Source: an uncultured Gammaproteobacteria bacterium (GTDB taxonomy: Bacteria; Patescibacteriota; Microgenomatia; Daviesbacterales; UBA10151). From it: a stretch of DNA of 64,000 bases. Location: NCBI GenBank assembly GCA_964415615.1, contig CAYQAW010000002.1, positions 1,897 through 65,896 of the forward strand, read 5' to 3'. The notes under the pieces were generated by a model. The model worked only from the letters and a program-made list of their open reading frames with translations. It made no database searches and had not been told where the DNA came from. The first letter of the stretch is position 1. Every line of letters starts with the position of its first letter. Below, one piece after another: positions 28,282-29,795 of the stretch. A program made the position numbers and the translations under genes.

Positions 28282-29795
28282 TGAATAACATAAAAGAGAG
28301 ATTAATTGATGTTAGGGATTTGCTGCAGGGGCATATCTTAGCCCTGATTATAATTTTAGTGATTGTGATTGGTATACCTATCACCTTTTATCTGGCCAAA
28401 CAACAACAGGATTTGCGGTCAAAAGCAACTGATGCTGGCCGTTTGGTATTTATACCACCTACCCCAACAGGATCTGTGAATATAAACAGCGCCTTTGATC
28501 TGGAGTTTGGCATTAATTTAAATCCGGCGGCGCGGATCACCGGAGCTGATGTAACTATTAGTTATACTAATAACCTGCGGCTGGATACTTTTTTGAAAGA
28601 TACGACTGTTTTACCGGAAGAGATCCTGAATAATAGCAATCCTGCTGTAAATCCTATAACTTTACATTATGTTGCTGTTAGTAAGAGTGGTGATTTGGCT
28701 TCCCGAACTTATGTTCCGTTAGGAAAGCTTACTTTTACAGCCATCAGCGCCGGGTCAGCAACAATTACTGTTATTACCAATCAGATTGTTGCTAAAGATC
28801 AACCAGGTACCCTGGCAATTGGAAATGCAACTACTACTTATACTGTTGCTGCCCGCGTTAATGGTGCCTGGTCTGTTTGGAGCGGAGGTACTTGTACTGT
28901 AACTTGTGATGGAGGTACTTTAACCGGAGAAACCAGGACATGTTATGCGCCTGCTGGTGGCGGAACAGAATGTACCAGGCTTGATAATACTCAGACCAAT
29001 TCTGAGAACTGGACTGATACCAGGTCGGGAGTGACAGCATGCAATACTCAAGCCTGTCCTGTTAATGGTGCCTGGTCTGCTTGGAGCGCTTGTTCAGCAA
29101 CAGCTTGTGGTACTTCTGGAACACAAACTAGAACATGTGATAATCCTTCACCATCAAATGGTGGGAGTGCCTGTACTGGGTCAGCTACCCAAGCTTGTGC
29201 TGCCTCTGCCTGTGCTGTTAATGGTGCCTGGTCTGCTTGGAGCGCTTGTTCAGCAACAGCTTGTGGTACTTCTGGAACACAAACTAGAACATGTGATAAT
29301 CCTTCACCATCAAATGGTGGGAGTGCCTGTACTGGGTCAGCTACCCAAGCTTGTGCTGCCTCTGCCTGTGCTGTTAATGGTGCCTGGTCTGCTTGGAGCG
29401 GAGGTACTTGTACTGTAACTTGTGGTGGAGGTACTCTAACCGGAGAAACCAGGACATGTTCTGCGCCTACTGGTGGCGGAACAGAATGTACCATGCTTGA
29501 TAATAGGACGCTGACTACTCCTACCAACCGGACTGAAACCAGGTCGGCAGTGACAGCATGCAATACTCAAGCCTGTCCCTGTATTAATGGGGATACTATA
29601 GGTGGTAACTCATGTGTGAGCATTGATGACTATAATACCTGGTATAGTGAATTCACAGGAGCAGTTACTACAAAAACAGCTGATTTTTATTCAGTATGTA
29701 ATAGTAGTAACCAAAAAGGAGATGGGGTGATTGATATTAATGATTATAATATTTGGCGCAGGGAATTTGATGCCAACAGTCACCGATGTACGTAA
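28281..29795 (+). CDS. Membrane-anchored surface protein: signal-anchor, cohesin-like domain, five thrombospondin type-1-like (TSP1) repeats, and a C-terminal dockerin-like module.
   Basis: Probable start is the ATG in TAATG overlapping the upstream stop. TM helix [21 protein letters not shown]. Cohesin-like pattern [18 protein letters not shown]...[17 protein letters not shown]. TSP1 repeats of the form WS-WS...CS-TCG-G-Q-R-R-C...GG--C-G...C. C-terminal dockerin-like context [16 protein letters not shown]. Confidence 0.65.
   Translation: [504 protein letters not shown]
28857..29580 (+). repeat. Five tandem TSP1-like coding repeats; the central two (about 174 bp each, roughly 29044-29391) are nucleotide-identical.
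   Basis: Seen in sequence. The antisense ORFs over this span are repeat artefacts. Confidence 0.8.

Follow-up and report, generated by a model that had tools for sequence, protein, structure and literature searches.

A gene in a 64,000-nucleotide (nt) stretch of contig CAYQAW010000002.1 (GenBank assembly GCA_964415615.1; the whole stretch is hereafter called the window) encodes four true thrombospondin type-1 repeats (TSRs), arranged as A-B-B′-A′ behind a leader and a cohesin-fold module and followed by a dockerin-like module. TSRs are usually presented as modules of the animal matrix and of apicomplexan adhesins. The array described here is entirely bacterial and host-adapted, and it behaves as an exchangeable linker within a surface operon of cohesin and dockerin proteins. 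To judge from sequence comparison, the window belongs to a relative of a Candidatus Daviesbacteria genome of the candidate phyla radiation (CPR; Microgenomates). The best overall explanation, which we consider reasonably probable, is that the product is a cell-surface protein whose TSR array forms a variable-length stalk within a cohesin/dockerin scaffold.

Identity and layout of the repeats

The whole protein matched Pfam TSP_1 (PF00090) with 59.6 bits (E 3.3e-16), far above the gathering cut-off of this family (21.6 bits), and a single B copy taken alone still scored 35.0 bits. Units A and A′ alone remained below the cut-off (14.8 and 20.0 bits respectively) because they carry approximately 17 extra residues between Cys4 and Cys5, the feature that separates this long type from the short B type. 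Both were nevertheless assigned as TSRs because of the whole-protein hit, the match of an A-type profile to TSRs of known structure and the fold model described below. When compared with the PDB, B retrieved TSR2/3 of human thrombospondin-1 in nearly gapless alignments (7yyk, 1lsl and 3r6b; E 6e-15 to 3e-14), followed by UNC5, properdin, C6-C8, ADAMTS13 and BAI1. The A-type repeat profile retrieved TSR structures only, with thrombospondin-1 at E 8.7e-5. A chance Cys-rich repeat was rejected as an explanation, the Pfam E-value placing the array far beyond chance.

Structure prediction with AlphaFold2 (AF2) from a nine-sequence alignment of the whole protein gave a predicted local distance difference test (pLDDT) score below 50 over the TSR region. 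The B′-A′ tandem, modelled separately with 49 di-TSR fragments taken from hits, reached a mean pLDDT of 84. A Foldseek search of the PDB with this tandem returned the same three thrombospondin-1 structures (7yyk, 3r6b and 1lsl; E 4.6e-8 to 2.2e-7), with both repeats aligned at 36–37% identity, and further matches to properdin, complement C6, UNC5 and ADAMTS13; every match at E ≤ 0.001 was a TSR-containing protein, as were almost all entries in the top 50. In this search the tandem agrees with the elongated, three-stranded fold of solved TSRs; the template modelling (TM) scores were low (0.38) because the inter-domain angle of the two slender domains differs. The initial annotation, made from the sequence alone, had proposed TSP1 domains and a profile search against Pfam TSP_1, and this proposal is borne out by the whole-protein match, the likeness to thrombospondin-1 structures and the fold recovered by Foldseek.

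Five copies had been counted at that stage, and we found four. The string VNGAW opens four units, the motif WSxWS occurs four times in the protein (at amino acids (aa) 197, 265, 317 and 369) and a local profile of bacterial TSRs delimited exactly four domains, with the boundaries given in Table 1 and no fifth. Each unit contains six Cys (24 in the array), two Trp and one Arg (QTRTC in B, ETRTC in A). The six Cys align with those of thrombospondin-1 TSR2/3 and have the spacing of a group-1 TSR, and the Arg of TRTC aligns with the second Arg of thrombospondin-1; together with the WxxW of each unit, it could supply the Trp-Arg stacking of a layered Cys-Trp-Arg core. Canonical animal TSRs typically also have a third Trp and a pair of Arg residues (RxR), neither of which the profile requires; here Q-T-R (B) or E-T-R (A) stands in place of the pair and only two Trp are present. 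The consensus originally put forward thus holds for the six Cys and the WSxWS motif, present in all four units, and fails for the Arg pair and the third Trp.

The array is enclosed by modules whose resemblance to cohesins and dockerins had also been suggested from the sequence. This suggestion stands by fold for the former and by profile for the latter, but not as Pfam membership, since both modules fail the respective cut-offs. Pfam Cohesin (PF00963) reached 13.7 bits (E 0.072; cut-off 24.1 bits) on aa 72–185. The AF2 model of the N-terminal module had a pLDDT of approximately 75–88, and its 33 best Foldseek matches in the PDB were all cohesins (E down to 1.1e-8, target-normalised TM-score up to 0.78), in line with the nine-stranded jelly-roll beta-sandwich of solved cohesins. 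The C-terminal module had no Pfam hit even at E 10 (Dockerin_1, PF00404, cut-off 22.9 bits). AF2 placed two helices in it (aa 448–458 and 486–498; pLDDT approximately 70–80), each after an Asp/Asn/Gly-rich loop, of which the second fits the calcium-loop motif and the first is degenerate. A nine-member profile of this module matched PDB entry 8x39 at E 7.6e-7 over four DxDGNG loop repeats; the entry is deposited as 'Serine protease', and the matched part consists of loop repeats of the dockerin kind. The same profile found the type I dockerins 5nrm_B, 5nrk_B and 4dh2_B at approximately 0.003, with further dockerins below. No NCBIfam model matched the TSR protein or its operon neighbours.

Table 1. 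Positions in the window of the TSR-protein gene, its modules and the other genes of the operon
Feature	Position	Strand	Description
TSR-protein gene	28281..29795	+	From the open reading frame list; ATG 28281 to stop 29795, 504 aa
N-terminal leader	28281..28427	+	aa 1–49; hydrophobic helix at approximately aa 18–38, then conserved QQQxxRSKA motif
Cohesin-like beta-sandwich	28428..28856	+	aa 50–192; assigned by fold
TSR A	28857..29060	+	aa 193–260, 68 aa; long-loop; six Cys, WSVWS
TSR B	29061..29216	+	aa 261–312, 52 aa; short type
TSR B′	29217..29372	+	aa 313–364, 52 aa; exact nt copy of B
TSR A′	29373..29579	+	aa 365–433, 69 aa; long-loop
Dockerin-like C-terminal module	29580..29792	+	aa 434–504; two loop-helix segments
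Upstream operon gene	27046..28281	+	Secreted; duplicated domain, (PTAA)n linkers, dockerin-like C-terminus; Pfam PT repeat
Downstream operon gene	29799..31643	+	Leader; Cohesin 28.4 bits and Dockerin_1 33.7 bits (both above cut-off); Ser/Pro-rich tail
Operon gene	31664..32299	+	Membrane helix and Cohesin (Pfam 38.1 bits)
Operon gene	32296..33042	+	Signal peptide, Cohesin (Pfam 43.1 bits), linker, LPEGG motif, C-terminal membrane helix

The reading frame and the extent of the repeat region agreed with what had been annotated, the region being computed here as 28857–29579. The ATG of the TSR-protein gene overlaps by 1 nt the codon that ends the preceding gene, translation could alternatively begin at a TTG at 28251, and the exact protein is already present in NCBI on a 123-kb contig.

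Proposed growth of the array and repeat number among orthologues

Units B and B′ were identical at 156 of 156 nt, in agreement with the earlier statement that the two central copies do not differ. Tandem Repeats Finder reported a period of 156 with 2.2 copies and 99% matches, and the perfect match at this offset spans 186 nt, so that 29059–29400 is an exact 2.2-copy tandem repeat (342 nt). The outer units A and A′ were 89.9% identical, with the differences concentrated in the long loop. All four units open with a shared stretch of approximately 28 nt that has one variable position, GTTAATGGTGCCTGGTCTG(C/T)TTGGAGCG.

The scaffold family to which this protein belongs is small, and its TSR count varies at one linker position, between the cohesin-like and dockerin-like modules, from none to one or four. 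Proteins P0017, P0121, P0122 and P0123 have no TSR, with a short Pro/Ser linker or nothing at this position; P0002, P0003 and P0004 each have a single A-type TSR, to which P0004 adds a Cys-rich stretch; and P0096 has one B-type TSR. P0004 is named 'thrombospondin type-1 domain-containing protein [Candidatus Daviesbacteria bacterium]' in NCBI. Among 30 metagenomic relatives bearing the same leader, 27 lacked a TSR and the other three loci represented the same protein with one TSR. The comparison of homologues that had been advised for the repeat number thus revealed genuine variation, and since the number of TSRs varies at a fixed position, they behave as an exchangeable linker module.

Unit A′ was 84–88% identical to the single TSR of P0002, P0003 and P0004, and A only 73–76%; we therefore take A′ as the ancestral copy and A as its diverged duplicate. 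The array would have grown from one ancestral A-type repeat, whose duplication gave A and A′. A B-type repeat would also have been gained, and its very recent tandem duplication would have produced B and B′. Recombination was probably helped by the near-identical starts of the four units. The long-loop A-type form (GG.EC.(K/L)LDG...(S/T)E.R..C) was also observed in unrelated metagenomic TSR proteins, often alternating with a B-like form, for example in the third repeat of P0104 and among fragments of hits P0005–P0120; the split into A and B subtypes therefore predates the gene in the window.

Type-1 repeats in other prokaryotes

The initial annotation described TSP1 domains as rare in bacteria, which proved overstated. 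A survey of species-representative genomes (one genome per prokaryotic species), using the single nine-residue pattern C[TDN]NP[ATS]P[AS]NG, gave at least 121 confirmed TSR loci, a count that is a lower bound. Most of these came from CPR lineages, in addition to Bdellovibrio-like predators, Omnitrophota and Rickettsiales. Of the 80 loci listed, 49 had CPR labels, among them Paceibacterota, Saccharibacteria, Nomurabacteria, Moraniibacteriota, Collierbacteria and Peribacteria. The others included Bdellovibrionales, Oligoflexia, Bacteriovoracaceae, Pseudobacteriovorax, Omnitrophota, Rickettsiales, Planctomycetales, Thermodesulfovibrionia and one Pacearchaeota archaeon. The 'Gammaproteobacteria' label of some listed loci is doubtful, and the 'uncultured Gammaproteobacteria' labels of L015 (CAZCNP010000001.1) and L082 (CAYOXV010000008.1) are probably wrong. 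Viral contigs yielded only two TSR loci, one of them in a giant-virus bin, and no link to phages was found.

Prokaryotic TSR proteins contained one to eight TSRs each. Of 44 that were scanned, 37 matched Pfam TSP_1, and their partner domains were of kinds usual in surface proteins of bacteria, comprising DUF11, N_methyl pilin leaders, PG_binding_1, VWA, beta-helix, fn3, SpaA, sortase and Dockerin_1. The aligned bacterial and metagenomic TSRs share a short consensus with a single Arg, and its carriers still pass the Pfam cut-off. P0104 combines a Cohesin domain above the cut-off with three TSRs, and P0102 combines two TSRs with Dockerin_1 behind a CPR-type RSKA leader. The window is therefore unique neither in having bacterial TSRs nor in joining them to cohesin or dockerin. 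In database terms the individual gene is ordinary, because Pfam detects the domain, NCBI already names the orthologue accordingly and many CPR genomes encode TSRs.

In the literature accessible to our search we met no account of type-1 repeats from CPR or any other bacteria; the matches concerned thrombospondin type 3 repeats in giant genes of Omnitrophota, or eukaryotic TSRs. The recurrent use of TSRs as surface modules by episymbiotic and predatory prokaryotes seems to be undescribed in the searchable literature. Aravind and colleagues treated TSP1 as an animal domain that apicomplexans acquired laterally (PMC3417536). The loci recovered in the survey offer a data set on the direction of TSR transfer between prokaryotes and eukaryotes, and they supply specific candidates for the attachment structures of CPR, which are largely unknown. 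A much wider proposal, that TSRs are a widespread building block of the attachment apparatus of CPR, some DPANN and predatory lineages, would make the present array a length-tunable cohesin/dockerin surface fibre, its repeat number quickly changed by recombination for contact with the host, and would read the likeness of prokaryotic and animal TSRs (up to approximately 60% identity) as the record of transfer between domains in either direction, with eukaryotic TSRs perhaps of prokaryotic descent. We regard this proposal, taken as a whole, as speculative and quite doubtful.

Operon context, proposed role and comparison with known systems

The TSR-protein gene is the second of a five-gene run (27046–33042) with spacing from a 4-nt overlap to a 20-nt gap, in which three of the five genes pass Pfam Cohesin and one passes Dockerin_1. 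The first gene encodes a D.N.DG.I motif at aa 355, and its (PTAA)n linkers correspond to 12-nt tandem repeats at 27258–27364 and 27990–28108. This gene also contains a perfect internal duplicate of 252 nt (27364–27615 = 27709–27960), encoding a repeated domain of approximately 110 aa. Exact internal duplications in two adjacent surface genes may point to a fast-evolving locus or to a region that is hard to assemble. The last gene ends with KTLPEGGTQEVTFAIAIVGGILTVLGILGLALL, in which an LPxxG-like motif precedes a hydrophobic helix at the C-terminus that lacks a basic tail; this terminus may be an anchoring signal, of the sortase type or another.

AF2 predicted a helix at aa 4–47 of the leader of the TSR protein, and residues L38, R46, S47 and A49 are invariant in the scaffold family. 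It could be either a signal-anchor or a cleavable signal, with possible cleavage after RSKA/Ala49. The same leader was observed at the start of the downstream gene (29799–29930), where as in the TSR protein the helix ends in IP(L/I)T(V/F)YL and is followed by (K/Q)QQQ(D/E)(L/T)RS(K/R)A. The pattern of this motif matched 245 stretches in the metagenome contigs of the Joint Genome Institute (JGI); the 30 confirmed relatives mentioned above (loci L086–L115) carry the leader, and every full-length one runs into a cohesin-like start. No Pfam or NCBIfam model covers the leader, which could serve CPR surface proteins as a dedicated signal or for sorting.

Two genes for XerC/XerD-like tyrosine recombinases flank the cluster (25549–26559 and 33044–33925), and the same bracket was observed in the Daviesbacteria relative (L001; 3075–4079 and 14412–15335). 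Between its recombinase genes the relative (GCA_016198315.1) has four extra genes compared with the window; one of them, absent from the window, encodes a protein of 1094 aa in which CBM_4_9 is combined with one canonical TSR (WSAWSSWSVCS...QTRSRTC). Scans of 24700–34500 for inverted repeats, promoters and terminators found no more than chance would give, and nothing that indicated an invertible element.

Under the explanation that we favour, a stalk in a surface scaffold, the leader would direct export of the protein and would then either serve as its anchor or be removed by cleavage after RSKA. The four TSRs would form an elongated, disulfide-stapled stalk of roughly 20 nm (solved TSRs are approximately 5 nm long) whose length fixes the spacing of the cohesin-like and dockerin-like ends, and they may also offer an adhesive surface. 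The two ends would link in a calcium-dependent manner to the four neighbouring cohesin/dockerin proteins of the operon, giving a modular surface scaffold for which the product of the last gene, with its C-terminal membrane helix, could be the cell-bound base. Several points weigh against this explanation. The stalk role is deduced from the position, variability and composition of the repeats, and pairing between cohesin and dockerin is proposed by analogy, both modules of the TSR protein failing their Pfam models. Disulfide formation among the 24 Cys is assumed for the host organism. TSRs of eukaryotes are ligand-binding modules, which makes a primary adhesive role conceivable. The exact protein was absent from the contig index and no second assembly carried it, and the exact copy number comes from a single assembly.

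This last point bears equally on the possibility that the copy number or the central duplication is an assembly artefact and that the true gene has one B repeat or more than two, which we judge unlikely. The B units and 30 flanking bases are identical over a length that exceeds a typical short read, so that their placement needs spanning pairs, and the upstream gene has its own perfect duplicate. Logan contigs of the same organism (SRR4343430 and SRR12113431) start 108 nt upstream of gene 32296 and thus fall short of the TSR gene, and a 50-nt B-unit sequence had no exact match in JGI metagenome contigs. Against an artefact, the reading frame is preserved across the array, the A/A′ pair (90% identity) is an independent sign that duplication happens in this gene, and repeat number truly varies among relatives. 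Short-read assemblers, moreover, usually collapse exact tandem repeats rather than create them, and two or more B copies are for this reason likelier. Far less probable still is eukaryotic contamination, or a very recent transfer of the TSR segment from an animal or protist, which we hold to be extremely improbable. Mollusc and coral 'coadhesin-like' proteins were the top named hits by total score, and the best repeat of a named eukaryote was still 52–60% identical to B; the high rank of the mollusc proteins, however, arises because the scores of many repeats are summed. Per repeat, the 28 best matches to B (among 118 scored hits) were unnamed metagenomic or bacterial proteins (58–73% identity), ahead of any named eukaryote. 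B has the short form with a single Arg that is seen repeatedly among the aligned TSR proteins of bacteria and metagenomes, and the clade occurs in many prokaryotic lineages. The gene lies in a bacterial operon of a gene-dense window (GC approximately 0.31–0.43) that is syntenic with the Daviesbacteria genome, the two having in common the order YebC, RuvC (93% identical), DUF5656, Xer-like recombinase, surface-protein genes, second Xer-like recombinase and downstream P-type ATPase (81% identical). The GC content at third codon positions (GC3) of the TSR region (0.27) fits that of neighbouring and host genes (0.24–0.36), and its higher overall GC (0.51) results from a Gly/Ala/Cys/Thr-rich composition. 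Contamination was rejected in view of this synteny, operon context and GC3, which mark a native bacterial gene.

A more serious alternative, which we nonetheless consider less likely than the stalk and rather improbable by itself, is that the TSRs are primarily adhesive, ligand-binding modules comparable to those of thrombospondin, properdin and apicomplexan TRAP, by which an episymbiotic CPR bacterium would attach to the surface of a host cell or to matrix and in which gain of repeats would raise avidity and not length. Eukaryotic TSRs bind glycosaminoglycans, CD36 and complement fragments. The prokaryotic TSR loci listed above fall mainly in lineages that live on other cells or prey on them, and several of their partner domains (N_methyl, VWA, SpaA, DUF11 and fn3) are typical of adhesins or pili. 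The repeats in the window, however, lack the basic surface of glycosaminoglycan-binding TSRs: they have one Arg instead of RxR, one to four basic residues and a neutral to acidic isoelectric point (4.3–6.2), and 50–65% of their residues are Ser, Thr, Gly or Ala. We infer from this composition that a stalk is to be favoured over a glycosaminoglycan-binding surface. Orthologues without any TSR at the linker position, and the placement of the array between two assembly modules, where a linker would be expected, also argue against a primarily adhesive function. The stalk and adhesive roles are not exclusive.

Compared with thrombospondin-1 TSR2/TSR3 (1lsl, 3r6b and 7yyk), the repeats in the window align over the full length and nearly without gaps, sharing WSxWS, six Cys in the same order, TRxC and NP.P..GG.C. 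They differ in having two Trp rather than three and Q/E-x-R rather than R-x-R, in the shift of the second Cys of B by one residue (CSATAC vs CSVTC), in the approximately 17 extra residues of the A type and in the missing basic surface. C-mannosylation and O-fucosylation of TSR motifs are eukaryotic and are not expected in a bacterial host. Closest to the window protein are P0004 (GCA_016198315.1), P0002 and P0003, orthologous scaffolds with the same leader, cohesin-like and dockerin-like modules but one A-type TSR instead of four. In P0004 the non-TSR parts are 87% identical in the best local alignment (66% of the query), and its locus is a syntenic operon likewise placed between two Xer-like recombinase genes. 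P0104, P0102 and the pilin-like N_methyl + TSR proteins P0031 and P0034 resemble it in the use of short single-Arg TSRs as secreted or surface modules (58–73% identical to B), but their scaffolds and partner domains differ, and the A-B-B-A order was absent from all of those examined. A two-residue insertion relative to other prokaryotic short TSRs is shared by B and its nearest relative, P0096.

The combination of a cohesin-fold and a dockerin-like module in one polypeptide, with further cohesin and dockerin genes next to it, resembles cellulosomal adaptor scaffoldins and non-cellulosomal cohesin-dockerin proteins, and by analogy this neighbourhood suggests a hierarchical surface assembly. The operon in the window, in contrast, encodes no carbohydrate-active enzyme, and the modules of the TSR protein lie below the Pfam cut-offs; their binding is a prediction. 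The linker itself is different too, TSRs taking the place of Pro/Thr stretches or X modules.

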